Of a DNA stretch of 64,000 nt, positions 2,271 through 62,827 are shown one piece after another. The notes under the pieces were generated by a model. The model was given only the letters and a program-made list of their open reading frames with translations. It did no database searches and was not told the origin of the DNA. The stretch lies in assembly GCA_963600815.1 (NCBI GenBank), contig CAVCCX010000002.1, forward strand, positions 16,033-80,032, given 5' to 3'. This DNA is from Bacteroides uniformis. GTDB lineage: Bacteria; Bacillota_I; Bacilli_A; RFN20; CAG-288. How positions within the stretch are numbered: position 1 is the first letter of the stretch; each line of letters starts with the position of its first letter. A program made the position numbers and the translations under genes.

Positions 2271-2276
2271 GCAAAG

Positions 2277-2304
2277 AAACTCCGATTCATTTCGGAGTTT
2301 TTTT
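2277..2304 (+). terminator. Rho-independent terminator after recA
   Basis: aaactccga/tcggagttt 9-bp stem with a 6-nt loop, followed by a T-run. Confidence 0.8.
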
Positions 2305-2391
2305 CATTGCCAACTTTTCTCATGCGGAAAGAAAACAGGTTTCTTCCTTTTTTTCTTTCCTCTTTTCGAAAGAAAAAAGCGGAAATTCGCT

Positions 2392-2419
2392 TTCAAAAAA
2401 GCCCATTCGGGGTTATAAT
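2392..2419 (+). promoter_or_regulatory. Candidate sigma-A promoter for rny
   Basis: TTCAAA, 16-nt spacer, TATAAT, about 170 nt upstream of the rny ATG. Confidence 0.35.
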
Positions 2420-2589
2420 TTTACATGTACATAAAGTCACTCGCTTTATGTTGTATATAAAAGATAAACTTGATTTAATTTGTTTTTTTTGAATATTTAA
2501 ATCGCAACGTCTTTTTTCAGAGTAGGTTCAAAAAGGGCACAGTGGACCTTTAAATTTTTTACTGAACCCTAGAAAGGTTATATTTTTAT

Positions 2590-9853: not shown

Positions 9854-11763
9854 TGTCCCAAATCCAATTGATGAAGCCAGAGCTGGCAAACCTCATTGCC
9901 GCTGGCGAAGTGATTGAACGTCCGGCCAGCGTCATCAAGGAATTGGTCGAAAATGCCATCGATGCCAAAGCCAAGAATATCTATATCGGTGTCACCGATG
10001 CCGGAAAAGGCACGATTCTTGTCAAAGATGATGGAACCGGCATGGATCGAGAAGATGCCAAGACCTGTTTTCTAAGACATGCCTCGAGCAAGATCAAGAC
10101 AGAATACGATCTCAACCGAATCCGAACGCTCGGATTCCGCGGCGAGGCCATTCCTTCCATCGCAGCGGTCAGCAAGGTGAAATTGACAACCGCTATCGAA
10201 AATGCGGAGTGCGGCACCCTTGTCGAATCCACACCCAATGAGGAACTTCAGGTTTCCGATACCCTCAATCGGAAAGGCACCATCTTTGAAGTCCGCGATC
10301 TTTTCTATAACACACCCGCCCGACTCAAATATCTCAAGTCCCAGAAAGTCGAGACCTATAGCATCATCGAAACAGTCGAGCATCTCGCTTTGGGCTTCCC
10401 TTCTGTCTCGATTTCCTTAGCCATCGACGGAAAGGAAATCTTCAAGACGAGCGGACGCGGTGACTTATTGGAAACCATCCAGAAGATCTATGGCAATGTC
10501 ATTGCCCAGTCTCTCTATCCGATCAAGAAAGAAGGCATCGCCTATTCCTTCTTTGGCTATATTGCCAAACCGGAAATCAACTATTCCAGAAGGAAGGATA
10601 TGCTTACCTTCCTAAACAATCGCTGCATCTACGACTATAAGATCAACAAAGGAATCGAAGACGCCTATAAGGACTATCTTCCCCCTTTAAGATATCCTTT
10701 CTGCATCATCAATCTCCAGCTGGATTCCTCCTTGGTGGATGTCAATGTCCATCCAACCAAGAAAGAAGTCCGTATCTCTATGGAAGAGGAGATTGCAAGA
10801 GATGTCAAAGAAGAAGTCTTGAAGACACTCGACTATAAAAAGCCGATCTATTTTGCAAGCGAAGACAAGAAAGCCGAATCGCTCATGGTCGAAGAAGATG
10901 CCTTTGACATCTCCGACCTTCAGCAAAATGACTTAGAAAAAGCCAAGGAAAGCCAGGACTATTCCACCATCCATCCCGTCGAAAAATCCCCCATCCCAGA
11001 ATATGTCCAGGATTCTCTTCCTTTTGAGCCGACCTATGAACTAAGAAGTCCACACGTCTCCGGAAATGAAAAGAAAGAAGAATTTTCTTCTTCTGTTCCA
11101 CCAAGTGAAAAGCCTCAGGCGGAATATACCTCCACAGACTACTATTCCACCATCTTCGAAAAGGAGAATATTTCCTATCAGCTTCCCGAGATGCATCCGA
11201 TCGGTCAGGTACTGCAGACCTATGTTCTTTGTGATGGCATCGACTGCTTCTATATCCTCGACCAGCATGCCGCAGCCGAAAGAGTCAATTATGAAAAAAC
11301 CGAAGCCCTCTTCAAAAGCATAAGAAGCCGGATTGTTCCTCTTTTCCCAATCACAGTGGAACTCACCTACAAGGAAAGACTCAACTATGATGAAGAACAT
11401 ATCAATCGTCTAGCCTCCATCGGCATCAAAGTCGAGGAATTCGGAGGAAATTCCATCAAGGTCACCGAGATTCCTTCCTTTCTCAATGAAAAGAACGATG
11501 AGGAGGTCATTCTCGATTGTGTCCATTCCTGTCTGAACAATGAAACGGCCGATCCCATCAGCCTTCTTCATCTGACGATTGCCAATATCGCCTGCAAGAA
11601 ATCCATCAAGGCGAACCATCATATGTCTCTCTTTGAAATCGAAGCCCTGCTCAAAGATCTTGCCAAATGCAAGAATCCGGCCAATTGTCCCCATGGAAGA
11701 CCGACCATCATCAAGATTACGAAAGCCGATGTCGAGAAAATGTTTAGGAGAACCGGATTTTGA
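9853..11763 (+). CDS. mutL: DNA mismatch repair protein MutL
   Basis: GHKL ATPase N-terminus LIAAGEVIERPASVIKELVENAIDA and C-terminal dimerisation region with QHAAAERV. TAATG overlap with mutS, SD gaagagg. Confidence 0.95.
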   Translation: MSQIQLMKPELANLIAAGEVIERPASVIKELVENAIDAKAKNIYIGVTDAGKGTILVKDDGTGMDREDAKTCFLRHASSKIKTEYDLNRIRTLGFRGEAIPSIAAVSKVKLTTAIENAECGTLVESTPNEELQVSDTLNRKGTIFEVRDLFYNTPARLKYLKSQKVETYSIIETVEHLALGFPSVSISLAIDGKEIFKTSGRGDLLETIQKIYGNVIAQSLYPIKKEGIAYSFFGYIAKPEINYSRRKDMLTFLNNRCIYDYKINKGIEDAYKDYLPPLRYPFCIINLQLDSSLVDVNVHPTKKEVRISMEEEIARDVKEEVLKTLDYKKPIYFASEDKKAESLMVEEDAFDISDLQQNDLEKAKESQDYSTIHPVEKSPIPEYVQDSLPFEPTYELRSPHVSGNEKKEEFSSSVPPSEKPQAEYTSTDYYSTIFEKENISYQLPEMHPIGQVLQTYVLCDGIDCFYILDQHAAAERVNYEKTEALFKSIRSRIVPLFPITVELTYKERLNYDEEHINRLASIGIKVEEFGGNSIKVTEIPSFLNEKNDEEVILDCVHSCLNNETADPISLLHLTIANIACKKSIKANHHMSLFEIEALLKDLAKCKNPANCPHGRPTIIKITKADVEKMFRRTGF

Positions 11764-34913: not shown

Positions 34914-36779
34914 ATGGCTAAAGAAATTATCTTAGGTATCGATTTAGGTACAACAAACTCTGTCGTTTCGTATATGCAGGATGACCATGGCGTCAAGGTC
35001 ATTCCTTCTCCGGAAGGAACCAACACCTGCCCGAGCGTCGTCTCTTTCAAGAAGGATGGCGAGGAAATCGTCGGCAATGCCGCAAAGCGTATGCTTTTGA
35101 CCAACCCCGACACCATTCACTCCATCAAGAGAAAGATGGGTACAAGAGAAATGACCCATATCGCCTGTATCAACAAGGATTTCACACCAGAGGAAATCTC
35201 TGCAAAAATCCTTTCCTATATGAAGTCGTATGCTGAAAAGTATCTCGGCCAGACCGTCAGCAAGGCCGTCATCACCTGCCCTGCCTACTTCAATGATGAC
35301 CAGAGACAGGCCACCAAGAATGCCGGTACCATCGCTGGCTTGGATGTCGTCCGTGTCATCTCCGAACCGACCGCAGCCGCTTTGGCTTATGGCATGGATT
35401 CGAAGAAGTCCGGAAAGATTCTCGTCTTCGATTTGGGCGGCGGAACCTTGGATGTCTCCATCCTCGATATCGGCGATGGAACCTTCGAAGTTCTTTCCAC
35501 CTCGGGTGATACCCAGCTTGGTGGCGATGACTGGGATAACCATGTCATCGATTGGCTGATTGGAGAAATCTCCAGTCAGTGCGGCATCAACATCTCCAAG
35601 AACAACCCGAGCGACCGTCCAACCCTTCAGCGTCTGAGAGATGAAGCCGAAAAGGCCAAGATCAACCTTTCTGCCCAGACCGAGACCATCATCTCCCTTC
35701 CGTACATCGGATTCAAGGATGGTGCCCCTGTCAACTTCGAAACCACCCTCACCAGAGCCAAGTTCCAGGATTTGACTGCTGACTTGATCAACCGCTGCAA
35801 ACAGCCGTTCGAAAAAGCTTTGAGCGATGCCAAACTCTCTGTTGCCGATTTGACCGATGTCATCCTCGTCGGCGGTTCGACCCGTATGCCTGCTGTCGTC
35901 GACCTCGTCACCCGTCTTTGCAACGGCAAGAAGCCAAATCAGTCTGTCAACCCCGATGAAGCCGTCTCTGTCGGTGCCGCTGTCCAGGGCGGTGTCATCC
36001 GTGGCGATGTCAAGGATGTCGTCCTTCTCGATGTCACGCCTCTGACCCTCGGTTTGGAAACCTTGGGTGGCGTCATGACTCCTCTCATTCCAAGAAATAC
36101 CACCATTCCGACCACCAGAAGCCAGGTCTTCTCCACAGCTGAAGACAATCAGCCAGGTGTCGAAATCCAGGTCTTCCAGGGTGAACGTCCAATGGCCCAG
36201 GACAACAAGTTCTTAGGCCGCTTCAAATTGGAAGGCATCCGTCCGGCAAGACGTGGTGAACCGAGAATTCAGGTCACCTTCTCCATCGATGTCAACGGTA
36301 TCGTCTCCGTCTCCGCAAAGGATCTGGATACGAACCAGGAACAGCACATCACCATCTCCAACTCCTCCGGCTTGAGCAAGGAAGAAATCGACCGCATGGT
36401 CAAGGAAGCCGAAGCCAACAAGGATGCCGATGACAAGAGAAAGAAAGATGCCGACACCAGAAATGAAGCTCAGCAACTGATTGACTCCATCGACCGTCAG
36501 GTCAATGACAAGGATCATCCGATCGACGAGAACACCAAAGCCTCCGCTTTGAAGATCCGCGATGAAATCAAGGATGCCTTGGACAAGAATGACCTCGACA
36601 CCGTCCGTGCCAAGATTGCCCAGCTCCAGCAGGCTGCCAACCAGGTCTATCAGGCCCAGGCCAACCAGACAGCCAATGCCTCTTCTTCCACCGCTGGCGG
36701 AAATGCCCAGTCCACTGCTACGGATAACAATGATCCGCATGTCGTGGATGCAACCTTCACAGAAAAGAAAGACAACTGA
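34914..36779 (+). CDS. dnaK: Molecular chaperone DnaK
   Basis: [19 protein letters not shown] and [11 protein letters not shown] Hsp70 signatures. SD aggagg. Confidence 0.98.
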
Positions 36780-36792
36780 TAAATTCGGAAGC

Positions 36793-36817
36793 AAGCCCGG
36801 AACGCATTTCCGGGCTT
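36793..36817 (+). promoter_or_regulatory. Stable hairpin between dnaK and dnaJ (no U-tract)
   Basis: aagcccggaa/ttccgggctt 10-bp stem with a 5-nt loop. It may act as a partial terminator or processing/stability element. Confidence 0.5.
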
Positions 36818-36841
36818 ATTCCTTAAATAGGAGGATTCTCT

Positions 36842-37972
36842 ATGGCAGAAAACAAACGCGACTACTATGAAGTTCTAGGTATCAACAAGACTGCCACCCA
36901 GGATGAGATCAAAAGCGCCTATCGAAAACTGGCCAAGCAATACCATCCTGACTTGAACAAATCACCGGATGCTCCCGCCAAATTCAAGGAAGTCCAGGAA
37001 GCCTACGAGGTTCTAAGCGACCAGCAGAAACGTGCCCAATACGATCAGTTTGGATTCGCTGCGTTCGACAACAACGGCGCCAATGGATTCCAGCAGGGAT
37101 TCAATGGGTTCCAGCAAGGCGACTTTGGAGACTTCGGGGACATCAACGATATCTTCTCTTCCTTCTTCGGAGGAGGCTCCTCTCGAGCCAGAAGAAGCAA
37201 CATGCCAAGAACAGGCGAAGATAAGGTTGTCCAGGTCAAGATCAATTTCGATCAGGCCGTCAGGGGAACCAAAGTCGATATTCCTCTTTCCTATGTCCAG
37301 ACCTGTCCGACCTGTCACGGAAGCGGTGCAAAATCACCCGATGATGTCACCACCTGCTCCACATGCCACGGCTCGGGAAGAGTCCGGACGAGAAGACAGA
37401 CCATCTTCGGCGTCATGGAAAGCGAAGAAGAATGTCCGACTTGCCACGGCAAGGGAAAGACCGTCAAGAAATACTGCGATCATTGCCATGGTTCGGGAAG
37501 AGTGCAGGTCAATGAGACCATCACCGTGAATATCCCACAGGGTGTCGATACGGGTGATACCATCCGCATCGCCGGAAAAGGCGAACCGGGCATCAACGGC
37601 GGTGAAAGCGGAAGCCTGATCATTCAGATTTCCGTCTCGCCATCCCAGACCTTCGTCAGAAAGGGAGCGGATGTCTACATCAACGCTCCGATTTCCTATA
37701 CGGATGCCCTTCTTGGTGCCACCGTGACTGTTCCGACCGTCACTGGGGATTGTGACCTTGTCATTCCACCCTGCACAGAACCGAATACGATTCTCCGCAT
37801 GGCCGGAAAAGGAATCACGACACCCAAGGGCAAAGTCGGAAACCAATATGTCACCATCAATGTCAAGTTCCCAAAGACACTCAACAATGAGCAGAAGGAA
37901 CTCATCAAGAAGCTCGATGAGATTGAGACCAAAAAAGGTGGCTTCTTCAATTGGTTCAAGAAGAAGAAATAA
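36842..37972 (+). CDS. dnaJ: Molecular chaperone DnaJ
   Basis: J domain DYYEVLGI...YHPDLN, G/F region, and four CxxCxGxG repeats ([32 protein letters not shown]). Confidence 0.97.
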
Positions 37973-42265: not shown

Positions 42266-43391
42266 GTTGCTTCACCTCGTCTTTCGGATTCATGCTCGGA
42301 TTCTCGGAAATATCATTGACGACTTCCTCAAGGATATCCTCCATCGTCAATATACCAATCGCCTTTTCTTCCTTCATGACGATGCCAAGATGCACTTTCT
42401 CGCTGTTGAGCTCATCAAAGGCATCATCTAGACGCATATCAAAAGGAATCTCCACGATTCTTTCAAGAATGGAGGGAATGCTCAGATGCGGATCCTTGAT
42501 ATATTCCTCAAAATAGACACGGGTGACAAGGACACCAACGAATTCCTTCTTTTCTGTATCATAGACTGGGATTCGGCTATAGGTCGTCGACTGGATTGTT
42601 TCATTTACCTTATCAGCGGTCAAGTCATCCACTGTGAGATAGAATGTCTTCTCAAGAGGAACATAGACCTGGCTCACCTTCATGTCATCGAAGGTGAGAA
42701 CATGCTTGAGAATCTCTTTTTCATCCTTCTCGAAGAGTTTTTCCATGTCTTCATCATTGTCTTCATCCTCGATGATATTATCTTCCTCATTGATAGCCTT
42801 ATCGGCCTCATAGAGAAGATCTTCCTTGCTAAGAAGATTTTCATCCTCAAGATGAAGCATCCTGTGGATCAGAGAGAGAAGTCTTTTGAAGGCAAAGACG
42901 ATCGGAAAGAGAAGAATCTGAAGCGTATATAGAGGATAGGCCATCAATACAGCGATCTTATCCGGTATGGCTCTCGAAATCACCTTGGGCAAGGTATCGG
43001 CGACCACATAGAAAAGAAAACCCATGACGACGGTGGAGAAGATGGCTTCCATGCCATCGGCCCAGCCATTGATCGTCGCGATATTTAACCAGAGCATCGC
43101 CGAGATGAAAGACATCAACGTCGAAAGGGTATTCGAAGTCACCAAAATAACAACCAAGGAGTTGTCGAATCGATCGACAAGACTCGTGATGATCTTGGCA
43201 TATCTTTTTCCTTTTTCCGCCTCAGCCCTGAAATGATATTTATTGCATGTCGAATAGGCATTCTCACATGCAGAAAAGCAACCTGTCAAAAGAAGCAATG
43301 CGGCAATGACCAGAAATGCCATCCACATCGGCATTCCCCATACGGTAAACGTATCATTCACTTCCGTCAGTATACAATGAGAACTTATCAC
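42258..43391 (-). CDS. CNNM/CorC-family transporter (DUF21-CBS pair, no CorC C-terminal domain)
   Basis: 377 aa. DUF21-like TM region (DTLPKVISRAI) and a CBS pair. It overlaps the downstream paralog by 8 nt. Start uncertain: GTG 43391, or the internal ATG at 43334. Confidence 0.8.
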   Translation of the reverse strand: MISSHCILTEVNDTFTVWGMPMWMAFLVIAALLLLTGCFSACENAYSTCNKYHFRAEAEKGKRYAKIITSLVDRFDNSLVVILVTSNTLSTLMSFISAMLWLNIATINGWADGMEAIFSTVVMGFLFYVVADTLPKVISRAIPDKIAVLMAYPLYTLQILLFPIVFAFKRLLSLIHRMLHLEDENLLSKEDLLYEADKAINEEDNIIEDEDNDEDMEKLFEKDEKEILKHVLTFDDMKVSQVYVPLEKTFYLTVDDLTADKVNETIQSTTYSRIPVYDTEKKEFVGVLVTRVYFEEYIKDPHLSIPSILERIVEIPFDMRLDDAFDELNSEKVHLGIVMKEEKAIGILTMEDILEEVVNDISENPSMNPKDEVKQHE

Positions 43392-43417
43392 AATTGCTAA
43401 AATTACCTCAGTAAATT

Positions 43418-43428
43418 ATTATACATTA
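43418..43428 (-). promoter_or_regulatory. Extended -10 (TAATGTATAAT) upstream of the CNNM genes; left copy of the 11-bp direct repeat
   Basis: The minus strand reads taaTGTATAAT about 27 nt upstream of GTG 43391. No recognisable -35 lies upstream. Confidence 0.45.
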
Positions 43429-43736
43429 TTTCTCGATGATTTTATATAGGGAGAGAGGAAGTACACTTGAATGCTCAAATGAAATAATAACGAAATATCA
43501 TAAGCGGATAAATTTTAAAACAAATATAAAAGAAGTAAACCTAAAACTGTGAATATTTTTCGAGTACTCCCTTGACATATGGGATGTATTTCTTTTTTTA
43601 ACTTCCTTCTTTTCCTATCCTCAAGTCCAGTCGTGTTGGCTGAGACAAGGCGTTCATCGATATCTATATACTAGATACAGGTGGTAACATAGAAGGTTTC
43701 TTCCTAGAAATATATTGTTCATAGACTCATGATTTT

Positions 43737-43780
43737 CCGGCCGCAGCCAGGGCTATCGCCTCAATTCTGGCTGCGGCGGG
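43737..43780 (-). terminator. GC-rich hairpin 6 nt after the stop of the 1154-aa gene (no U-tract)
   Basis: ccgcagccag/ctggctgcgg 10-bp perfect stem, extendable to 11 bp plus 2 more after a mismatch, with a 16-nt loop. Confidence 0.4.
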
Positions 43781-43785
43781 ATTCC

Positions 43786-46700
43786 TCATATCTTGATTGT
43801 GATAGCGGGGCGGACGCCATTGCTCGAATTGTAGACGCGGCTGCCGTTCAGGTCGCCACCATTGTACACATCCAACGCGTCTGTGGGGAAGAAGCTGTGC
43901 GGGGAACGGGTCCAATAAAGGCCATTGCCGTTATATGATGAACTGGAATCGGTATTGTAATATGCTCCGCTTGCCTTTGCATAGTCCGTTGGCTTGCAGC
44001 ATCTTGATTCGTCGTCAGGAAAATACGACGTATTCGTATAATCTTTATAGCTAAGAAGATAGACCTTATCATTCGTATTCTCACAGGCATAGGAGTTGGT
44101 GCTCGAATTCGTTGTCGATGCACTGTTGTCGACTTCCACTGTCTGGCTATAGGATGAATCAAGGGAGAATGCCGAATTATAGAAATCAGAGTTCAGCCAG
44201 GAACGGATATAGCTGTATTTGTAATTGTTGAGATATACAGTCTTTCCATCTATTGTTCGATCAGAAAACGATAAATAATAATATTGATTTGCATCCAATA
44301 AGACTGTCGAGACAAGGGAATAGGTTCCATTGTCAGAAGAAAGCACTTTCCATTCGATTGGCTCACACTTGAACCAATAGGCAGTTCCATTTACGATTTT
44401 CGTTCCATCGCTGAAAGTATAGGAAGTAGAATAAGGTGAAGCCTTCTTCTTGGCATAATAGGCCCCATCATAGAGATACCAGCCATTGGATTCTGCTGTA
44501 GTAAGAGTATTGAGTGTTGAAATTAGAGATGCATCAGAAACATGAGTCTGAGGATATAAACCATAAGTCAAAGTGTTTGTTTCCGATAAATAATTCGGCA
44601 TTTTACCAATCGATTTATCATCTGCCTCTTTTTCTGCGGCAGTCCAAAAACACGCCATTAAAGACTTGTCTCCCGTAGGCATTGTAAATGTATACGTTTC
44701 ATCACGACTTAACAATTGGTTTCCTTCATACCATCCCTTAAAAGTGTAATTGGAATTGGCTGTTGCATTTACAGTTATTTTTTCATTCGTATATCCTTGT
44801 CCCGAAAGAATAAAAACACTTCCTTTTGTCATATTCTCACTTATCACAGTCAATTTATTTAGAATTGCTGACCATTTTCCTCGAAGAGAAAGACTCACCG
44901 AATAGCTTTTGGAATCTAGCGAATACTCTAATAATAACCATTTAAAAGTAAAGCCCGTTTTTTGGCTAGGTTCATTAAGATACTGATTCGCTTTTTTCTT
45001 AATTGTCGTCCGATAATTTCCATCATAATTGACATCGACTATGCCACCGATATTGTAAATATAATCTATTCCTGTTTCAATATCAGAACTTTCGAAAGCC
45101 TTCCCTGCTTCACACATGGCCAAAAGATTCTTATTATCGCCAAAATCACCATTTTTTTGAATTAGCTTGTATGCTTGGTCATACTGCTTGTTATTAAGAT
45201 AATATTGTATATCAGATTGTCTTCCACTTGGAATGAAGACGTTAAAAGTGAGTATCATAAATAGCGTAACTACGCCCACTAATGACAAAGATATGGTTAA
45301 AAATATTTTTTTGCGTTTTAAAAACCACTTTATCTTTTGTGCTTTCTTCAGCTTTTCACATTCAGCGATTTGATTCCTGGAATCCTTATAGGAGATGTTA
45401 TTCATGAAAATACGAATGGCGTCATCATACATTCCACTGTTTTTATAGGAAATGGCTATTCCATATTGTTCTTCACGAATCAAATTTTCGACAATTTCGA
45501 TTTCATTTTTAGAGTCTCTATAATCTTCGATTTTCTTAAACTCGGAAATTGACTGCTGATACATTTTTTTAGATTTATAATCCAGTGCTCTTTGATAGAT
45601 GTTTTCCTTCTTCAACATCTCTGTGCAAAAAGAAATCAGGGAGGAAGAATCCTTATATGCTTTGATGGACTCAAAAAGAGAAATTGCTTTTTTGTAGTTA
45701 TTTTGCGATTTGAGTCGTATAGCATCGTTATAAATCAATTCGTTATTTCGTCTTTGGCAAATATTGATTTGAGAAAAGGAGTCCCTATAGTCCTTGAGCT
45801 GTTTGAAAATGGATATGGCATCCGCATAATATCTAGCGTTTTTTGCATAGAGGCCTTTTTGATAAAGGTCTTCCTTTCCCTGAAGAATCGCGCACTCCTT
45901 CGCTTGTCCGTCCGCATCCTGATATCTATAAATTTTCTGAAATGCATGGCAGGCTTCCTGGTATCTTCTTTCATTCTTCAGATTCATCGCAGAGCCATAA
46001 AGTTGATTCAGCCTTAGCAAAATTTCATCGTTGATTGAATCAAGAAGTTTTTGTAGCTTTGCATCGCCATATTTATAGGCATGACGATAGTTCTCATTTT
46101 GGTCAAGCGGCTCTAAAATTTTTTTTAGTTCATCTTCTCCGCAATGGTATTCAACAAGCAACTCAAGAAAATAAGCTCGACCATTCTTTGCTTCCTTATA
46201 GAGAATCTTATTGAGCAATGGTGTCGCTTCATCATATTTTCCATCATCAATCAAAACCTCTGCTTTGGAAATCATTTCCTCCACTGTCAATTCGATTTTT
46301 TCTTCTTCGTTTCCGAACTTAAGATTCAAGCCATAATGGCGAACACCAATGAGAAGAATTCTTCCAGTCTCTTTAAGAGGCAAGCGATTCTTTTTTGAAA
46401 TCAAAGAAACATATTTGGCAAAGTCGTCAAAGCTAAGATCAAAATTATTGAACTGCTTCTTGTTCTTGAGAACTGACCAAATATCCAAATAGAAAGCAAC
46501 AAAGAGGTCATACATCTTCTTCTTTTCTGGCTTTTGTAGAACGAGACCAACCCTTGCAATGAGTGTCGAATAGGCTTTCTTCTTGCTCTTGTTCATCATA
46601 TTCGATGCAGGAATTTTTTTGGCTTCTTCCATTTTCTTTGCTTTTGCCAGAGTGATTTCATTCTCAGAGGCGGAATAAGGAACACCCAAAAATTCGTAGA

Positions 46701-47250
46701 GGTTTCCACAATTCAGGATTCGATATTCATCATCCAATCCATCAAAAGAAGCAAATTCATCATCCTTCGGCATCAGTTTATCTAATGCATCATCCTTTAA
46801 GACCCAGAAGCCTTTCTGTTCTGCTTCTTTGACAAGTTCATCAAATGAAAAGATATTCTCATTCTGGATACGATTTTCAGATGATTCCACGATATTTTGG
46901 ATCATCGATGGAAGAACGACTTTCGGAGATTTCGATGCACCGAATAAAAATTCCAAAGCTTTTCGAATCGACAGAGTCTTTAAAGATATGCGTTCGATGT
47001 TTCGTCCGCCTTTATTTCGATTATATTTGTTTTTGCTTTTATCATAGACAGCATCGTAAACCATGATTTCTTCTGCATCATTCTTTAAGTCTTGGGCCAG
47101 ACGTGGATTCTTCGGATTGGTCTCACTGGCTTTTTTCTTGATGATGGTATCGATATTCTGCACATTCTTCTCGGAAGGCTTGATTCGATAATAGCGGAAA
47201 TAATTGTATTCCACATCACTCAATTCAACTGATGTTCTTTGCTCTGACAT
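43786..47250 (-). CDS. Large single-pass membrane protein: cytoplasmic N-domain with J-like segment and 44-aa YKDS repeats, TM helix, InlB-B-repeat-like and DUF6273-like ectodomains
   Basis: 1154-aa uninterrupted ORF with SD gaggag 10 nt upstream. NLYEFLGVPYSASENEI (aa 183-199) is J-domain-like but has no HPD. Repeats span aa about 417-635. TM is IFLTISLSLVGVVTLFMILTFNVF (aa about 649-672). NYTFKGWY...LMACF is B-repeat-like (aa about 800-868). IEWKVL...IRSWLN..F...VYLLS...YWTRSP...GVRPAITI is DUF6273-like (aa about 893-1154). Confidence 0.8.
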   Translation of the reverse strand: MSEQRTSVELSDVEYNYFRYYRIKPSEKNVQNIDTIIKKKASETNPKNPRLAQDLKNDAEEIMVYDAVYDKSKNKYNRNKGGRNIERISLKTLSIRKALEFLFGASKSPKVVLPSMIQNIVESSENRIQNENIFSFDELVKEAEQKGFWVLKDDALDKLMPKDDEFASFDGLDDEYRILNCGNLYEFLGVPYSASENEITLAKAKKMEEAKKIPASNMMNKSKKKAYSTLIARVGLVLQKPEKKKMYDLFVAFYLDIWSVLKNKKQFNNFDLSFDDFAKYVSLISKKNRLPLKETGRILLIGVRHYGLNLKFGNEEEKIELTVEEMISKAEVLIDDGKYDEATPLLNKILYKEAKNGRAYFLELLVEYHCGEDELKKILEPLDQNENYRHAYKYGDAKLQKLLDSINDEILLRLNQLYGSAMNLKNERRYQEACHAFQKIYRYQDADGQAKECAILQGKEDLYQKGLYAKNARYYADAISIFKQLKDYRDSFSQINICQRRNNELIYNDAIRLKSQNNYKKAISLFESIKAYKDSSSLISFCTEMLKKENIYQRALDYKSKKMYQQSISEFKKIEDYRDSKNEIEIVENLIREEQYGIAISYKNSGMYDDAIRIFMNNISYKDSRNQIAECEKLKKAQKIKWFLKRKKIFLTISLSLVGVVTLFMILTFNVFIPSGRQSDIQYYLNNKQYDQAYKLIQKNGDFGDNKNLLAMCEAGKAFESSDIETGIDYIYNIGGIVDVNYDGNYRTTIKKKANQYLNEPSQKTGFTFKWLLLEYSLDSKSYSVSLSLRGKWSAILNKLTVISENMTKGSVFILSGQGYTNEKITVNATANSNYTFKGWYEGNQLLSRDETYTFTMPTGDKSLMACFWTAAEKEADDKSIGKMPNYLSETNTLTYGLYPQTHVSDASLISTLNTLTTAESNGWYLYDGAYYAKKKASPYSTSYTFSDGTKIVNGTAYWFKCEPIEWKVLSSDNGTYSLVSTVLLDANQYYYLSFSDRTIDGKTVYLNNYKYSYIRSWLNSDFYNSAFSLDSSYSQTVEVDNSASTTNSSTNSYACENTNDKVYLLSYKDYTNTSYFPDDESRCCKPTDYAKASGAYYNTDSSSSYNGNGLYWTRSPHSFFPTDALDVYNGGDLNGSRVYNSSNGVRPAITIKI
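45346..46002 (-). repeat. Coding tandem repeats: five units of a 44-aa motif (Y..A...F..I..YKDS....I..C)
   Basis: Units begin near aa 419, 463, 507, 551 and 595. The last four are exactly 44 aa apart. Examples: YYADAISIFKQLKDYRDS, YKKAISLFESIKAYKDS, YQQSISEFKKIEDYRDS, YDDAIRIFMNNISYKDS. Confidence 0.8.
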
Positions 47251-47280
47251 GCCTTAATCACTCCTCTAGATGTTCCAAAC

Positions 47281-48141
47281 TTATTTCCTTAATTTTGATG
47301 TAGAAGATATGACTTCAACCCCACTAAATCCATTCTTTTGTAAAAGACAATCAATTTGATCTACCTTTTTGTCCAAGCAGGGACCAATGACAACTTTTTT
47401 CAAAAAACCTGATTTAGGGATTTTTAGACTAAATATCTTTTTGCCAGATTTATCTTTATCAAATTCCCAATAAGCATTTATTTCTGGTAAGCAATCCAAA
47501 AACAATCTCCATGCCAATCGTTGTTCTTTCTCAAACGAAAACTCTTTATTTTTAACAAACGACATCAAATCAAGAAGATATTCTTCAGCTTCATTCCATG
47601 CATACCCATCATTTGAAATATTACTAAATATCTTACCATCAATCTCGCGGCAAGCCTTGTCTATTAATTCATAATACTTTTTCGTGCCACTATAAATGAC
47701 ATCTTGATATAAAACATGGGAAATCGGATATCCAATATTTTTTGGTACCTTTTTCAAGTAGTTCTCGCTAAAGCCTAACATCATCCCCTCTCCTCTAGAA
47801 CCATAGCAAAGCCATTGATTTGCTTTATCAAATTCTTTTGAAAAACTTATTGATAAATATTGAGGGTGCTTTAAGCTATTCGTATCTTTTGATGGCAAAT
47901 CGGTAAAATATCGATGTCTTTTATCTTCAAAATCATTAAAAAAGTTATGGAATATTTCGCAATGATGGCTAGACGACGATATATATCTTTTTTTAAGTTT
48001 TCTATATACTGCCCGAGAAAAGATTTTGATTTCCGAGGAATCATTTAAATTCTGTGCATAGCCAAATCGAATCAAAGATGAAGAAATGATTTTTTCAAAC
48101 GCGTCATATGACGTATAGTGATAAGTCAGTTTATTATTCAT
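47281..48141 (-). CDS. DUF2971-like protein
   Basis: 286 aa. N-terminal LTYHYTSYDAFEKIISSSLIRFGYAQNLNDSSE matches the DUF2971 hallmark (YHYTS ... fs ... lND..E). SD gggag lies 8 nt upstream. It ends 30 nt before the 1154-aa gene on the same strand. Confidence 0.7.
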   Translation of the reverse strand: MNNKLTYHYTSYDAFEKIISSSLIRFGYAQNLNDSSEIKIFSRAVYRKLKKRYISSSSHHCEIFHNFFNDFEDKRHRYFTDLPSKDTNSLKHPQYLSISFSKEFDKANQWLCYGSRGEGMMLGFSENYLKKVPKNIGYPISHVLYQDVIYSGTKKYYELIDKACREIDGKIFSNISNDGYAWNEAEEYLLDLMSFVKNKEFSFEKEQRLAWRLFLDCLPEINAYWEFDKDKSGKKIFSLKIPKSGFLKKVVIGPCLDKKVDQIDCLLQKNGFSGVEVISSTSKLRK

Positions 48142-48254
48142 GTGTATTTCTCCCTATTTGACGGTTCGCATAGTAGACTCGGAATTTACTACTTGCCTGT
48201 TTCTAATCTTATACATAAACGGCATGTAATAAATTTCCTTTCTCAAGGCCATAG

Positions 48255-48288
48255 AAAGAAAAAAGGCCTTGGCTGATAAACCAAGACC
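48255..48288 (-). terminator. Rho-independent terminator between the Udk-CYTH gene/G10 promoter and the DUF2971 gene
   Basis: On the minus strand, ggtcttgg/ccaaggcc 8-bp stem (one G-U pair) with an 8-nt loop, followed by uuuuuu. Confidence 0.75.
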
Positions 48289-48301
48289 CATAATAGGTAT
48301 A

Positions 48302-48329
48302 ATTATACATTACCCCCCCCCCGCGTCAA
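48302..48329 (-). promoter_or_regulatory. Near-consensus sigma-A promoter with a G10 tract in the spacer
   Basis: The minus strand reads TTGACG (48329-48324), then c-GGGGGGGGGG-taatg (16 nt), then TATAAT (48307-48302). A TG precedes the -10, giving an extended -10. Confidence 0.6.
48313..48322. repeat. C10/G10 homopolymer
   Basis: Ten consecutive C on the plus strand, in an intergenic region that is otherwise AT-rich. Confidence 0.95.
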
Positions 48330-48387
48330 TTTTACAAAACCCGAGGAGAAGCAAGGTTTGATAAACATATTGTACAACAAACAGTTC

Positions 48388-49815
48388 TTATTGTGGATAT
48401 TTTTCGAGCATTTCATTGACATATTTCATCGCCAATGCCTCATCTGGATTGTCAAATTCGATGAAATAGCCTTTCCCTTCCACATAGCGGATCGTCAGTT
48501 TCTGTCTTTTGTATTCGATTTTCCACTTGATCTTATGCTGGATGGGACCGATCAAGAATCCTGCGGTTGCGAAATCCTGGATGCAGTCGGATTCATCCTT
48601 CCACACATGATGGAAATCCCCTTCCCGTATGAGAATGTTGATCGGACGGATGATTTTTCCATCCTTTCGGATCTTTGGAATTCCTTTATGGACCAGACTG
48701 GAAGGAACATACGTCTTTCCCTGATCATCCGAATAGGAGCGAAGTCGAAGAATATTCTCGGATGGGGAGACTTCATTTGGTGTCGAGAAATAGGTATCTT
48801 TCTCATAGGTGATCTTCTTGATGAAGGACTCTTTGAGAATCTCATCGATGGCTTTCTTCGAATTGGTGTGTGTCTCCATCTTCGTCTTGTAGAGCGTTCC
48901 ATTCTTCTTCTCGAGGAAGGTCATGTCATTGATATAGATGACATCTGCATTCTCCTTGGAAGGAAGAATCGTCGAGACATAGCTCGGGATGATGTACTTG
49001 AAATAGAGTCTGGTCGTGAAAGCCGAACTTGCGGAGGTATTCTCTGCCTGGCTATCCCGGATGATTCTTCTTAGGAAGAGGGATTTTGGATTTCCATCGA
49101 CGAAATTGGTGATGATTTCCTCTCTTGGGAAAAGACGGATGAGATTGTTGTTCAATGCATAGATACCTTCGATGATGATGCAGTCATAGTCTTTTCCATT
49201 CAGATAGGTATGGCTTGGAATCCTTTCGGAATAAATCTTGGAATACACTTTCTTCTCGACCATCCTGTCCAAAAGAAGATCTTTCACATCCTGGGCGGCG
49301 GAGGACATATCATAGACGATTGGTTCATCAAAATTCAGCACCTTCCATTCCTTATTCAGATAGGAAAGAAACTTCGTAAGTTCCTCTTCGCTTGCAAAAT
49401 AGGAAGAAAGAACACTCTTAAGCTTCAACAAAGAACTTTCCGAGTATTTCTCATCGAAAGGAATTTCCATCAGAATCGGCTTGATGGCCGAGGAAATCTC
49501 CTCAAGATGCTCTAGTTTTCCATCATAGTAGTTCTGATTCACCTTGAGAGGAATGAGGTGGCTAAGTCCCACATTGTAGTTATCCAAGGAAAGAATGCAG
49601 GAATGATGTCCGTTTCTTTCTAAGACATCCTCGAGAAGTCTTGCACAATACGATTTTCCACTCGAAGAGGCACCGGCGATGAACACGACGGCCTTTTTCT
49701 TTTTCTCGAGGGTTTCCTCGATGAGATCGATATTGGCACTGACCCATTTGTCAGGATGATGATACTTGTATTGCATAAGAAGAAAAACCTTTTCTATGGA
49801 TTCATGGAAATCCAT
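48388..49815 (-). CDS. Uridine-kinase-family P-loop kinase fused to a C-terminal CYTH-like domain
   Basis: N-terminal half has IAGASSSGKSY, SLDNY, NFDEPIVYD, IIIEGIYAL and LRRIIRD. The C-terminal about 170 aa has a CyaB/CYTH-like pattern (EKDTYFSTP, ILRLRSY, KIKWKIEYKRQKLTIRYVEGKGYFIEFD). Start uncertain: 49815 overlaps cvpA, and ATG 49776 is the alternative. Confidence 0.7.
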   Translation of the reverse strand: MDFHESIEKVFLLMQYKYHHPDKWVSANIDLIEETLEKKKKAVVFIAGASSSGKSYCARLLEDVLERNGHHSCILSLDNYNVGLSHLIPLKVNQNYYDGKLEHLEEISSAIKPILMEIPFDEKYSESSLLKLKSVLSSYFASEEELTKFLSYLNKEWKVLNFDEPIVYDMSSAAQDVKDLLLDRMVEKKVYSKIYSERIPSHTYLNGKDYDCIIIEGIYALNNNLIRLFPREEIITNFVDGNPKSLFLRRIIRDSQAENTSASSAFTTRLYFKYIIPSYVSTILPSKENADVIYINDMTFLEKKNGTLYKTKMETHTNSKKAIDEILKESFIKKITYEKDTYFSTPNEVSPSENILRLRSYSDDQGKTYVPSSLVHKGIPKIRKDGKIIRPINILIREGDFHHVWKDESDCIQDFATAGFLIGPIQHKIKWKIEYKRQKLTIRYVEGKGYFIEFDNPDEALAMKYVNEMLEKYPQ

Positions 49816-59940: not shown

Positions 59941-60039
59941 ATGAATCTTGTCATTTATAATCCAGAAACTGCCTACATCACCTATTGCGTGAAACTCGAA
60001 GGCAATGAAGAAAAACCAATCTATTATCTGCATGCATAA
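59941..60039 (+). CDS. Candidate 32-aa small ORF (MNLVIYNPETAYITYCVKLEGNEEKPIYYLHA)
   Basis: ATG lies 7 nt after gagga and about 16 nt from the predicted TSS. It overlaps the permease start (60005) in another frame. No homology recognised. Confidence 0.3.
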   Translation: MNLVIYNPETAYITYCVKLEGNEEKPIYYLHA

Positions 60040-61063
60040 TCTATTCATCAAAAGACTGAAGAGTCGAAAGAAGCAATTCTTCGGCTCTTCTTCTATCTTT
60101 TTCATTTTATTTTCGACATTAAACATCTTATTCCTTTTTTGTTGGAATTTTTTCAGCAATATATATTTATTCTCATTCGGCTACAATAATGATTATTACT
60201 ACTCATATAATGATGTAAATATAAAAGAAGCTGAAGAAACTTATCCAATAGAGGATATTGCATTTTCCTATGATATCGAAAACAAAATCGAAGATGAAAC
60301 AATCATCTTCGAAGCCTTTGTCAGTCCAAACACCTTTTTAGAGGAGTATGGAATCCGTTTGACAAACCGCCTTTTTGTCAATATGAAAGTCAAAGACAAA
60401 GACATATTCTCGAATATGGAAAGCATGGATTATTGCATCATTTCCGAGAATTACAGACATGAGAGGAATTCTCTATCAAAAAACGGAAAGGAATATCCCA
60501 TTCTGTCTACTTTCCAGTTGGAAATGACCTCCGCTATCATCAGCAGTCTAAGGACATCGAATATCAAGGATATGCAACTTGCTCTTTTCGTAGAGAAAAC
60601 CATCGACAAAGATAAATCCGCACAAATCATTGTCAAAGGACATGAAGAGGCGGCAGAAAAAGATGATCTGATTTCCGGAAAAACTCTCAATGATGAATAT
60701 AAGGAAGGATACACAATCTTTCAGCCCATGTTTTATGTCGGATTCCTTATCCCCTATCTCTTTGCCTGCATTTCGATGTTTTTCATTCTCTCCTCCATGC
60801 AGACTCTTTCCATGAAAGAAAATGACATTCTCTATCTCTTGGGAATGAAAAAGAGAAACCTCTATTTCCTCGTCTTAAATGAACGGACACTCGAAATGCT
60901 TCTTGGCTTTTTGGCTTCCATTCTCATTTTCACACCAATCCTTATACCTATCACGAAAACCTTCTTCTATGTGGCATTCATCAATTTTGCCATCCAGCTC
61001 TTGTATGTTCTTCTCATCCTTATTTTCTATACACTCAAAGAAACCAAAAGGAAGTTCCGATAA
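60005..61063 (+). CDS. FtsX-like ABC transporter permease
   Basis: 352 aa. N-terminal TM, an extracytoplasmic region of about 190 aa, and C-terminal TMs with an FtsX-like loop SMKENDILYLLGMKKRN. Confidence 0.7.
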   Translation: MKKNQSIICMHNLFIKRLKSRKKQFFGSSSIFFILFSTLNILFLFCWNFFSNIYLFSFGYNNDYYYSYNDVNIKEAEETYPIEDIAFSYDIENKIEDETIIFEAFVSPNTFLEEYGIRLTNRLFVNMKVKDKDIFSNMESMDYCIISENYRHERNSLSKNGKEYPILSTFQLEMTSAIISSLRTSNIKDMQLALFVEKTIDKDKSAQIIVKGHEEAAEKDDLISGKTLNDEYKEGYTIFQPMFYVGFLIPYLFACISMFFILSSMQTLSMKENDILYLLGMKKRNLYFLVLNERTLEMLLGFLASILIFTPILIPITKTFFYVAFINFAIQLLYVLLILIFYTLKETKRKFR

Positions 61064-61077
61064 GAAAGGAGTGAAGC

Positions 61078-61725
61078 ATGATTGAACTACAGAATTTCAC
61101 AAAAGAATTCAAATCGAAACGAATCTTCGAAAATATCAATATCCAATTTGACAAAAATACGTTCTATGGCATCTATGGTCCTTCGGGATGCGGAAAGACC
61201 ACTCTTCTGAATCTGATTTCCCTTCTCGATGATTCCTATTCCGGAGATATTCTCATCAACCAGAAAAACATAAAGGAAATTAAGAAAAAAGAGGAATTCC
61301 GAAAGAACACCTTCGCTTTCATCTTCTCGGAAGCCAGTCTTTTTGACTATCTTTCCGTCAAGGAGAATATCATCCTCCCTCTGACATTCCGAAAGAAGAA
61401 CGTTCCACAGAATCTGAATGAACTGGCCAAGGAATTATCCATCGACGATCTTTTAGACCGTGACATTTCCACTCTCTCCGAAGGCGAAAAACAAAGAGTC
61501 AGCATCCTCAGAGCCCTTGTCAGCGGCCAGGATTATCTCATCTGTGATGAACCGACCTCCCATCTCGACAAGGAGAATTCGATTCTGATTGTCCAATTGC
61601 TCAAAAAGATGGCTCAGAAGAAAGAGAAAACCATCATCATGTCCTGCCATGATCAGAATCTGATTCCCTATTTTTCGAAAGCCTATGCCATTGAAGAATA
61701 TCATTTACATGAAATCAAATCGTAA
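61078..61725 (+). CDS. ABC transporter ATP-binding protein
   Basis: GPSGCGKTT, LSEGEKQRVSILRAL and LICDEPTSHLD. Confidence 0.92.
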   Translation: MIELQNFTKEFKSKRIFENINIQFDKNTFYGIYGPSGCGKTTLLNLISLLDDSYSGDILINQKNIKEIKKKEEFRKNTFAFIFSEASLFDYLSVKENIILPLTFRKKNVPQNLNELAKELSIDDLLDRDISTLSEGEKQRVSILRALVSGQDYLICDEPTSHLDKENSILIVQLLKKMAQKKEKTIIMSCHDQNLIPYFSKAYAIEEYHLHEIKS

Positions 61726-62827
61726 AATCCGATTCAAGTTCATCCTGAATCTCTCTTATAAGCGAAAAAATCTGTTCATTCTTGGAGCCATCACAAGTCT
61801 TCTTTTGCTTTTGGCTTTTTCCTTCTCCGCCTTCTTCAGGCCCTACTATGAGCACTACAATCCAGATATGGATACAAATGTCATCACCATCCGAAAGGAA
61901 TTCAAGTGTTCCCTTGCGGATGCTGAAGAAACATCAAAGAATTACTACAAAAAAGAAATCGCTCCGCTCTTCGATAAAATAGAGAATGTGACATATTCCT
62001 ACCAGTACACAAGTGAAATGAAGTGGGACTACCTCTATGTTCAGGAAGAAACCAATCTCCACAATTTCGGTTTCATTCCAAGAGATCATGTCGAAAATAA
62101 GGAAGTCATTCTCATCGATGGCGATATAGAGAAGAGTGAAAAATTCTTCCACTATGAAGAAAATACCAAACTCGATTCGATTCATTCCTCTTCGCTGAAA
62201 AGCGATGAAACGAATACCATTCTTTTCAAGCCTTACTTCCATTCGGGAAATCAAGCCCTTGTCATTTCCAGCCAGAATCTCGTCAATGACAAAATGGAAT
62301 TCTACTGCTGCTTTTTCAGCATACGATGCAAGAAAATCACAACCAGCCTGATTTCGAAGATCACGAAACTATCCTCCTCCACCGATCTAGTCAGACGCAT
62401 CTTTGATGGCATGATCCATCCGGCAAGCAACTACATGCGTTTCTATGGAATCATCCATCCTGTTCTCTCCACATTCATCTATATCGATGTCATCCTTGCC
62501 TTGGGAATCTTCTTCAGCACTTCCTTCACCCAATATCTGAGCCTGAAAAACAAGCAGGAGGAAATCAGACAGTATTTCCTGCTCGGGCTCAGCAAAAAAG
62601 ATTTCTTCCTTTCTTCGAATCTCTCCAATTCCTCTTGCTTCGTCATTTCCAATCTCGCGATGTATCTTCTCTATCTTCTCTTTATGGTGATCTTCAAGTC
62701 AGCAAGCGGATATTCCTTCTTCTTCAGTCCTCTCTTCCTTCTTCTCTATTTCGGACTCGGCATCCTGCAGATTCTGATTCAATATCTCTTCGATTCTCTA
62801 TTCTATAGACAACTTACAAAGAAATAA
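61709..62827 (+). CDS. FtsX-like ABC transporter permease
   Basis: Start taken as MKSNRKIRF, overlapping the ATPase 3' end. N-terminal TM, an extracytoplasmic region, and C-terminal TMs with SLKNKQEEIRQYFLLGLSKKD. Confidence 0.7.
   Translation: MKSNRKIRFKFILNLSYKRKNLFILGAITSLLLLLAFSFSAFFRPYYEHYNPDMDTNVITIRKEFKCSLADAEETSKNYYKKEIAPLFDKIENVTYSYQYTSEMKWDYLYVQEETNLHNFGFIPRDHVENKEVILIDGDIEKSEKFFHYEENTKLDSIHSSSLKSDETNTILFKPYFHSGNQALVISSQNLVNDKMEFYCCFFSIRCKKITTSLISKITKLSSSTDLVRRIFDGMIHPASNYMRFYGIIHPVLSTFIYIDVILALGIFFSTSFTQYLSLKNKQEEIRQYFLLGLSKKDFFLSSNLSNSSCFVISNLAMYLLYLLFMVIFKSASGYSFFFSPLFLLLYFGLGILQILIQYLFDSLFYRQLTKK

Follow-up and report, generated by a model that had tools for sequence, protein, structure and literature searches.

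The 64,000-nucleotide stretch analysed here (positions 16,033 to 80,032 of contig CAVCCX010000002.1, hereafter the window) carries, between a udk-CYTH gene and the CNNM genes, an insert of 4844 bp with two minus-strand genes, one for a DUF2971 protein of 286 aa and one for a large protein of 1154 aa with a predicted membrane anchor. We report that the insert is present in some strains and absent from others, and that its two ends match the leader and the 3' end of target operons of diversity-generating retroelements (DGRs). From the leader at its 5' end and the variable region (VR), hairpin and avd remnant at its 3' end, we consider it likely that the insert is a satellite, varying between strains, which copies a DGR target operon but not its template repeat (TR) or reverse transcriptase (RT), and that the lectin-like tip of the large protein is, or was, rewritten in trans. 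Loci in other assemblies are cited below by L numbers.

The initial annotation of this segment had described a compact minus-strand operon, and the two open reading frames (ORFs) are indeed found at 47281-48141 (286 aa) and 43786-47250 (1154 aa), separated by 30 nt, with a Shine-Dalgarno (SD)-like AGAGGAG 5' of the second. No further ORFs of ≥60 aa occur in the segment except overlapping frames, and the gene content of the insert amounts to these two genes and a 23-codon ORF. Integrase and transposase families gave no Pfam match to either gene and no tRNA lies anywhere in the 64-kb window, in agreement with the earlier account. The atypically low GC content reported there also holds, at values other than the estimated 30-35% against about 47% in the flanks: region 43392-48387 has 36.3% GC, its 5-kb flanks 43.7% and 45.3% and the whole window 44.2%; the two genes lie in the lowest-GC 4.8-kb stretch of the window, at 36.6%. 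GC content at third codon positions (GC3) is 0.28 in the DUF2971 gene and 0.38 in the large gene, against 0.52-0.54 in neighbouring genes. Composition is not uniform within the insert; the stretch from the 3' part of the large gene onward (43565-44598) has 42.6% GC and differs in origin from the rest of that gene.

Comparison of empty and filled sites places the borders at 43548-48391 and not, as first proposed, at 43392-48387; the 156 nt at 43392-43547 are native CNNM upstream sequence outside the insert. Empty-site assemblies were found through exact-sequence look-up of the DJ-1 protein of the window. In six same-species assemblies (L133, L134, L137, L138, L140 and L142) udk-CYTH is followed directly by the CNNM genes, which bears out the suggestion that this is accessory DNA, while the site is occupied in the window, L001/L135, L003/L136, L002, L139 and L141. 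Two imperfect direct repeats of 17 bp, both derived from the last codons of udk-CYTH, mark the ends:

48392-48408, minus strand: left direct repeat CTCGAAAAATATCCACA, which forms the last udk-CYTH codons, the insert supplying a new stop
43548-43564, minus strand: right direct repeat CTCGAAAAATATTCACA, followed by the original udk-CYTH end (GTTTTAG) and the native CNNM upstream region

Empty-site strains have the same 17-mer as the left repeat, and there it runs straight on into GTTTTAGG and the sequence upstream of CNNM. At 43548 to ~43582, the right junction retains a diverged copy, ~35 nt long, of the udk-CYTH end, and the C-terminus of the Udk-CYTH protein is altered by the insertion, reading …KYPQ-stop instead of the …KYPQF-stop of empty-site strains.

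The occupied sites differ in content. In L001 and L003 a DUF2971 relative stands at the same place after udk-CYTH, followed by a 1327-aa relative of the large protein; flanking proteins are 99-100% identical to those of the window, the DUF2971 protein 88% and the large protein 54-66%. These two contigs end exactly at the CNNM start. L139 and L141 have the same left junction and leader with other genes inside, namely an unrelated 288-aa gene and then a lipoprotein-type protein with Flg_new and Flg_new_2 repeats, which in L139 are ~80% identical to aa 790-889 of the window protein. This alternative allele lies at L139 12676-14374 and L141 11174-11481, and both contigs stop inside its lipoprotein-type gene. 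The 288-aa gene of L139 matched no family; that it might be a diverged DUF2971 gene was ruled out, as neither BLASTP nor Pfam found any similarity.

The initial annotation overlooked that the large gene terminates in a DGR variable region and that both ends of the insert come from a DGR target operon. The features of the 3' end are as follows:

43806-43907, minus strand: VR of 102 nt (aa 1116-1149) at the end of the large gene, colinear with template repeats
43806-43818, minus strand: GC-rich VR end GGCGTCCGCCCCG, the last 13 nt, common to template repeats
43778-43805, minus strand: VR-specific 3' flank including the stop codon, at the position of initiation of mutagenic homing (IMH), conserved among targets and different from the sequence after the TR
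43740-43777, minus strand: GC-rich inverted repeat GCCGCAGCCAG / CTGGCTGCGGC, which all compared targets have just 3' of the VR
43590-43722, minus strand: decayed fragment of the 5' part of avd (accessory variability determinant), found by tblastn with the Avd of L011 (aa 48-73)
43565-44598, minus strand: DGR-cassette-derived segment (DUF6273 domain, VR, hairpin and truncated avd), its DNA 85% identical to that of P0012 (L008)

The window VR aligns without gaps over 102 nt with the TRs of L011 and L070, both of which come from related assemblies and not from this genome. Mismatches to the L011 TR fall at 17 of 35 A sites and 8 of 67 non-A sites (Fisher p = 8e-5), and those to the L070 TR at 17 of 33 and 9 of 69 (Fisher p = 7e-5). 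Among three VRs, 28 of the 32 sites that are A in both TRs are variable, against 7/66 at non-A sites (p = 6e-14). The homology between TR and VR extends from GTTCCCCG to GGCGTCCG(C/T)CCCG; beyond this GC-rich end the two diverge, VR copies continuing with CTATCAC… and TRs with ATTTGTCTGAG…. Differences between the window and L001 within the VR are also unusual in kind. Over 26 VR codons (aa 1118-1143) they number 12, 13 and 2 at codon positions 1, 2 and 3, with 0 synonymous and 19 non-synonymous codons, compared with 30, 26 and 59 over the 229 codons upstream in the domain, where 44 codons differ synonymously and 39 non-synonymously (Fisher p = 2e-5 for the codon-position pattern). L001 and L003 were considered as a case of VR change between near-identical strains and rejected, their eight differences all lying in the B-repeats and their VRs being identical.

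The inverted repeat begins 28 nt after the VR and has an 11-bp stem and a 16-nt loop; folded as DNA (43777-43740) it reaches -19.1 kcal/mol (z = -5.5). It is conserved downstream of the VR in L001, L008, L009, L011, L070 and L144, is not followed by a T-run, and gave no hit in the terminator scan. The avd remnant is longer in L001 (aa 5-71), with an in-frame stop. The putative target-recognition end is complete in the window, comprising the GC-rich element, a flank that diverges from the TR and the downstream hairpin; no TR or RT was found in the 64 kb. A VR pattern starting from TGGACCCG, a point that precedes the real TR/VR homology so that no TR can fit it, matched nothing among viral, genome and metagenome contigs. 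With the pattern corrected to GTTCCCCG…GGCGTCCGYCCCG, there were two IMG/VR hits, both unrelated, and at least 118 matches in the genome scan, mostly by chance in high-GC genomes, L070 alone being relevant. A matching TR would be identified by the pattern GTTCCCCGAAC…GGCGTCCG.

The last 270 aa of the large protein are closer to small DUF6273-only proteins (up to 76% identity) than to the large paralogues, and the DNA of 43565-44598 is 85% identical to the small cognate target P0012 (L008), compared with 83.5% to the allele at its own locus. P0012 and P0013 (L009) are encoded at another locus, beside an FGGY kinase gene, with the VR flanks, stop region and GC hairpin of the window; their contigs stop just past the hairpin. 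At the syntenic locus of L011 and L012 the order is target, bAvd, TR and RVT_1 reverse transcriptase, the 102-nt TR lying between bAvd and RT and overlapping the annotated start of the RT ORF. A third cassette, in L070, holds target, avd, TR and a split RT (2069-3255; L070 is a species-representative assembly), whose overlapping ORFs reflect either an error of assembly or a frameshift. In L011 (VR at 10986-11090, TR at 11623-11724) and in L070 the cognate VR exceeds its TR by one codon, and that of L008 is two codons longer than the other VRs; the window VR and the TRs are equal in length. Indels are not an expected product of DGR mutagenesis.

Two of the empty udk sites (L138 and L142) come from the same assemblies as L008 and L009, and their DJ-1 protein is the same as that of the window. 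L144 is 99.7% identical to L009 over 9 kb, and the target genes of the two differ at 2 of 894 nt, both in the VR at TR-A positions, L144 having A at both; after its hairpin L144 continues with the start of an intact avd gene. Judged by these sequences, a DGR is present in the species and has recently been active at its cognate target. The contigs of L008, L009 and L144 break at or soon after the VR or hairpin of the DGR targets, as expected from the VR/TR repeat, and it is for this reason that the RT is not seen in the species itself.

The 5' end of the insert is a leader with the following elements:

48226-48391, minus strand: conserved operon leader, from the G tract onward 83-92% identical in L008, L009, L011 and L010
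48324-48329, minus strand: -35-like TTGACG
48313-48322, minus strand: G10 tract
48302-48307, minus strand: -10-like TATAAT
48286-48298, minus strand: near-palindrome ACCTATTATGGGT
48265-48288, minus strand: terminator-like hairpin GGTCTTGG/CCAAGGCC, upstream of the operon
48254-48264, minus strand: T-run following the hairpin
48235-48243, minus strand: SD-like AGAAAGGAA
48154-48225, minus strand: 23-codon ORF (MPFMYKIRNRQVVNSESTMRTVK, then stop) between leader and DUF2971 start, read from the sequence and conserved in L001, L002 and L003

Copies of the leader precede the DGR operons at the FGGY locus (L008, L009 and L011) and another DUF6273 gene (L010); the ~105-nt conserved part lies at 48215-48322 in the window, where it occurs once, at 8090-8178 in L008, 8713-8803 in L009, 7615-7705 in L011 and 9954-10045 in L010. 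The two hairpins reported earlier at the start and end of the cassette (48288-48265 and 43777-43740) were both found, but the picture of an insulated module is not upheld, both belonging to elements that are common to DGR target operons at other loci. Conservation of the leader begins exactly at the G tract, the sole G/C run of ≥8 in the window, which measures 10 nt here, 9 nt in L001, L002, L139 and L141, 8 nt in L003 and 8-9 nt at other loci. At the udk locus TTGACG and TATAAT, 16 nt apart, enclose the tract and together make the region's best promoter-like match (11/12 to consensus). A pyrimidine stretch in the leader is able to pair with the SD-like AGAAAGGAA, a possible anti-SD/SD pairing. 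No Rfam family matched 43000-49000, leader included, the leader alignment had no covariation, and the leader pattern matched no viral (IMG/VR) or JGI metagenome contig; loci of the large-protein paralogues have no upstream homopolymer tracts. The G8-G10 tract in its promoter-like spacer may switch expression by phase variation, which we offer as a hypothesis only, since metagenome assemblies can misjudge homopolymer length. The 23-codon ORF starts close to the first-gene start position in other leader copies, and may be a remnant of the replaced gene or a leader peptide.

The two proteins encoded between these ends have the following parts, all on the minus strand:

47281-48141: DUF2971 protein, 286 aa (Pfam PF11185), no hydrophobic segment
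46321-47250: aa 1-310 of the large protein, predicted cytoplasmic N-terminal domain of a rare family, 99% DNA identity to L001 up to ~46322
46507-46704: J-domain-like subdomain, aa ~180-250, HPD replaced by IPASN
45331-46293: helical TPR-like region, aa ~320-640, five repeats of 44-45 aa ending Y(K/R/Q)D(S/A)
45223-45306: single transmembrane helix, aa ~649-676, preceded by KLKKAQKIKWFLKRKK, the sole Kyte-Doolittle window above 1.6
44641-44850: divergent InlB B-repeat (Flg_new_2, Pfam), aa 801-870, in the predicted ectodomain, ~80% identical to the L139 lipoprotein-type allele

Pfam matches to DUF2971, Flg_new_2 and DUF6273 (the last at aa 995-1153 of the large protein, 67.4 bits) agree with the domain calls made earlier, and the single hydrophobic helix with the description of the large protein as a transmembrane, receptor-like one. 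The N-terminal flank of the helix is rich in K and R, from which, by the positive-inside rule, an N-in/C-out topology is predicted, with the lectin-like end exposed. DUF6273 has a reported C-type-lectin-like fold (PMC10743442) and figures repeatedly among reported DGR targets, the VR then occupying its C-terminal end (PMC11792537); as reported for that family, the VR would sit on a C-type-lectin-like tip of the large protein.

The large gene of the window is 99% identical to that of L001 as far as ~46322 (aa 310), where identity breaks sharply to ~50%, rising again to 80-90% in the DUF6273 part. The TPR-like region is strongly diverged between alleles and mosaic with respect to paralogues, and in 50-aa segments of the protein the best match alternates between paralogue groups, which identifies the gene as a recombinant mosaic. 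It belongs to a small multigene family with other copies in the same assemblies at other loci, where the paralogues are preceded by a DUF5662 gene, by an 85-aa ORF or by nothing. In L005 (6820-7413) and L006 (4661-4918) the DUF5662 gene stands 24-25 nt ahead of the paralogue; in L006 only an 85-aa ORF is annotated, though at the DNA level the region can be aligned to the whole of the L005 DUF5662 gene. The paralogous loci have no VR flank or hairpin in common with the window.

The N-terminal 310-aa domain is rare, with 56 representatives at E ≤ 1e-3 among 1.84 billion, and in other proteins is found joined to surface repeats, zinc ribbons or genuine DnaJ domains. Its AlphaFold model (predicted local distance difference test, pLDDT, 75) matches solved structures only through the J-domain-like subdomain, for which Foldseek comparison of aa ~180-250 with J domains gave target-normalised TM scores of 0.5-0.77, a root-mean-square deviation of ~3 Å and probabilities of 0.97-1.0. 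A profile search found PDB J domains at E = 0.004-0.2, and Pfam DnaJ scores 19.4 bits at aa 183-248, under its cut-off of 27.8. The HPD tripeptide between helices II and III marks canonical J domains; in this family its position is taken by (I/L)P(A/P/T)(S/N), in which only P is invariant. The subdomain is J-like, a non-canonical J domain that has the fold and no HPD tripeptide, and with HPD replaced by IPASN canonical Hsp70 stimulation is doubtful. Housekeeping dnaK-dnaJ genes lie at 34914-37972, ~6 kb from the insert, probably by coincidence. The N-terminal domain is also 52% identical to the N-terminus of P0010, which is encoded in an operon of L143 (371-12853) with the order HSP70, HSP70-vWA, P0010, DO-GTPase2, GAP1-N2 and DO-GTPase2. 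Kaur et al. 2020 (PMC7159879) described such HSP70/GAP1-N2 arrangements as GTPase-centric conflict systems, one component of which is fused to DnaJ or TPR. DO-GTPase, GAP1-N2 or extra HSP70 genes were not found near the window gene, which has only the N-terminal domain in common with that system.

The DUF2971 assignment rests on a Pfam score of 33.9 bits against a cut-off of 22, with the full profile covered (aa 109-209). In a large protein collection the sole relative is 88% identical; the protein also matches phrog_1762, of unknown function. Differences between alleles fall mostly in a 39-residue patch at aa 42-80 (nt 47902-48018), where DNA identity is 61%. The family has a predicted ADP-ribosyltransferase (ART) fold related to DarT and AbiGi, with a large helical insert between β-strands 1 and 2 (PMC12522546), to which the patch may correspond. 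It includes Aristaios, which lactococcal plasmids encode as a single-gene abortive-infection system and whose model is ART-like (PMC11381338). Candidate residues for a modified H-Y-E(xE) active site, picked by eye only, are H8 (YHYTS), Y113 (WLCYG) and E204 and E206 (FEKEQ). The AlphaFold model, built from two sequences, has a pLDDT of 40 and is unusable for fold, and a PDB sequence search found no match. PADLOC 2.0.0 gave no significant match for either window protein (the DUF2971 protein reaching only E = 0.04 to PDC-S31), nor did NCBIfam. In the DGR operon of L011 an FRG protein matches the PADLOC candidate PDC-S15 at E = 5e-12; together with the DUF2971 gene of the window, this places members of defence-associated families between leader and target in at least two alleles, which is suggestive. 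The DUF2971 gene is probably an independent cargo gene, of the Aristaios abortive-infection type to judge by its family.

In the history that we favour, a DGR target operon would have been copied, from leader to mid-avd, to the 3' end of udk-CYTH, and the internal genes between the copied ends would later have been exchanged, here for the DUF2971 gene and a lineage-specific surface-protein body. The resulting large protein would be anchored by one N-in/C-out helix, with a stalk of B-repeats and a C-type-lectin-like tip displayed on the cell exterior, while the J-like domain without HPD and the TPR-like region remain in the cytoplasm. The chromosomal DGR of the species, with its target and avd at the FGGY locus and the complete Avd-TR-RT set as seen in related assemblies, would copy the TR RNA with adenine-specific errors, and the cDNA would replace the VR of any target that has the matching 3' end and hairpin, this remote one included. 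The outcome would be an altered ligand-binding surface on the large protein, and exchange of the middle of the gene with paralogues would add further variation.

Several observations weigh against this reading. The 64-kb window holds no TR or RT, same-species contigs stop at or just after the VR and no RT is seen in the species, and in L070 the RT falls into overlapping ORFs. Both TRs were taken from related assemblies, with ~8-9 VR/TR mismatches at non-A sites. The VRs of L001 and L003 are identical, with no sign of ongoing diversification at the remote site, and gene conversion, with a cognate target that had diversified beforehand as donor, could account for the difference in VR between the window and L001. 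Finally, the lectin fold of the C-terminal domain is taken from the fold reported for the DUF6273 family.

Among the alternatives, it is possible, if on the unlikely side, that the insert is the remnant of an integrative element, such as a small island or satellite, that entered the udk-CYTH 3' end by site-specific recombination and whose genes are cargo. Such an origin would suit the imperfect 17-bp direct repeats derived from the end of the target gene and the replacement of that gene end by insert sequence, the presence/absence polymorphism with different cargo at the same site, and the low GC3. However, the insert contains no integrase, recombinase, transposase or tRNA, both its ends are homologous to a chromosomal DGR operon of the lineage and not to phage, and IMG/VR scans with leader and VR patterns gave nothing related. 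As a route of arrival, this idea is compatible with the copied DGR target operon that we prefer.

Somewhat less probable is that the large gene carries a relic, in which a DUF6273-VR-hairpin-avd' segment was captured from a DGR locus and is no longer mutagenised, the surface family varying by recombination instead. The lack of RT and TR in the window, the decay of avd beside the VR, the identical VRs of L001 and L003, the frameshifted appearance of the L070 RT and the mosaic relation of the large gene to its paralogues would all fit. Yet the GC-rich end, 3' flank and hairpin are intact and near the versions of cognate targets, VR differences between the two alleles are nearly confined to first and second codon positions and to TR-A sites, and the cognate target of the species has recent changes restricted to TR-A sites.

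We find doubtful the view, close to that of the initial annotation, that the two genes form a coupled sensor-effector defence, in which the DGR-diversified ectodomain would sense, for instance, phage and the J-like/TPR module would control the ART-like DUF2971 protein, with abortive infection as the result. Speaking for it are the 30-nt spacing of the genes behind one leader and the keeping of the pair in two diverged alleles, the validation of Aristaios as a single-gene abortive-infection system with an ART-like model (PMC11381338), and the clustering of DUF2971 strain differences in the 39-aa patch. To these may be added the 52% identity of the N-terminal domain to P0010 of the HSP70/vWA/DO-GTPase2/GAP1-N2 operon, a proposed conflict system (PMC7159879), the match of the FRG protein in the L011 DGR operon to PDC-S15 (E = 5e-12), and an earlier proposal of DGR-diversified conflict-system sensors (PMC10907252). 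Against coupling, the L139/L141 allele has an unrelated 288-aa gene and a lipoprotein-type target without a cytoplasmic part, paralogues are preceded by DUF5662, an 85-aa ORF or no gene, PADLOC found no significant match for either protein, Aristaios acts alone, and the J-like domain has no HPD; gene adjacency is what would link the DUF2971 protein to the large one. The initial annotation treated the pairing of DUF2971 with the large protein as the defining trait and put forward neighbourhood conservation as the test of it; the pairing occurs in only two alleles at one locus, other genes standing upstream in L139/L141 and in the paralogues, and since it is not conserved the coupled idea fails that test. 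Of the abortive-type function suggested there, what stands is that the DUF2971 family has a published abortive-infection member (PMC11381338), while coupling to the large protein is unsupported.

A bolder version, which we hold to be improbable, would join all of these elements: in a gut Bacillota lineage, a DGR that rewrites the outward-facing lectin tip of a transmembrane receptor, a cytoplasmic J-like/TPR module derived from the HSP70/GTPase conflict systems that controls a co-transcribed ART-type abortive-infection toxin, a phase-variable poly-G leader common to every DGR target operon of the lineage, and RT-less satellites that spread. If true, a unicellular bacterium would possess a programmable surface sensor for defence, copies of which settle elsewhere in the chromosome. 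Highly improbable, lastly, is that no retroelement is involved and that ordinary positive selection and recombination act on a surface lectin, with the hairpin as transcription terminator: the whole gene family is variable and mosaic and the hairpin directly follows the stop codon, but the VR is colinear with TRs that related cassettes carry between avd and RT, the variable sites follow the adenines of the TR (28/32 vs 7/66), and the hairpin has no T-run, is absent from the terminator scan output and, with its flank, is conserved downstream of the VR in unrelated target genes, an avd remnant following.

The copied DGR target operon that we favour is a new example of a known hypermutation system, the system itself not being new in kind. 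Targets that lie remote from their DGR are already recognised, the DGR of Treponema denticola having seven non-adjacent ones (PMC5758913, PMC4891356). As there, a lectin-type domain has the VR at its C-terminal end, the VR ends GC-rich, the differences concentrate at TR adenines, the target stands away from the RT, and several targets have one 3' module in common. Unlike there, the window target is a predicted type-II membrane protein with a cytoplasmic part of 650 aa, and is carried on a strain-variable insert on which the parent operon's leader and a piece of its avd persist. With the DUF6273-type DGR targets known from phages and prophages of gut Bacillota, namely tentaclins (PMC10743442) and targets in Faecalibacterium prophages (PMC11792537), it has in common DUF6273, a C-terminal VR and the reported C-type-lectin-like fold; those are phage tail or receptor-binding proteins, whereas the window protein is chromosomal and predicted to be anchored in the cell membrane, with no phage genes nearby.

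In Bordetella phage BPP-1, the IMH of mtd reportedly consists of a (G/C)14 element and a downstream hairpin or cruciform (Guo et al. in 2008 and 2011 are said to have described it). The TR/VR homology of the window likewise ends in a GC-rich element and diverges at once, a GC-rich inverted repeat following shortly downstream; in contrast to mtd, its 11-bp stem has a 16-nt loop and is no short tetraloop hairpin, and the sequences are unrelated. Phase-varying promoters with homopolymer tracts include the poly-G spacer of Neisseria meningitidis porA and the poly-C tract of Bordetella fim. The leader resembles them in having a G8-G10 tract between -35-like and -10-like hexamers that differs in length between assemblies, in which homopolymer lengths are error-prone; it is unlike them in that the -35-like hexamer is found only at the udk locus and a terminator-like hairpin follows within 13 nt of the -10-like hexamer.

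The DUF2971 protein can be likened by family and size to Aristaios (PMC11381338): it has the Pfam match, is similarly small (286 vs 316 aa) and predicted to be cytoplasmic, and is encoded on accessory DNA. Unlike Aristaios, its gene stands in one operon with a large surface-protein gene. As for GAP1-N2 conflict systems (PMC7159879), the likeness lies in the N-terminal 310-aa domain with its J-like subdomain, 52% identical to P0010; the window protein differs from P0010 in having a transmembrane helix, B-repeat and DUF6273 instead of a zinc ribbon and other repeats. Narrow literature searches found neither a description of this architecture nor a paper linking DGR targets to homopolymer phase variation.

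That the cassette is the only accessory DNA in the window, as the initial annotation has it, is not established. The second-lowest-GC stretch (60001-62000, 37.7%) contains an ABC ATPase gene, a 352-aa ORF to which Pfam has no match and the first part of another unmatched ORF, of 380 aa (61685-62827); other strains have genes of similar size.

From a biological standpoint, this locus provides a well-defined case of a cellular DGR target. The origin of the remote target is legible from the two ends of the insert, which shows how DGR targets can multiply. Up to four sources of variation would meet in one operon, namely adenine mutagenesis, paralogue exchange, a polymorphic G tract and the presence or absence of the insert. 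With a receptor-like target beside a gene of an abortive-infection family, and a cytoplasmic domain in common with a proposed conflict system, DGR-diversified sensors would become testable in a two-gene setting; should the two genes prove to be unrelated cargo, the locus would still usefully exemplify, for an uncultured lineage, a phenomenon already known.

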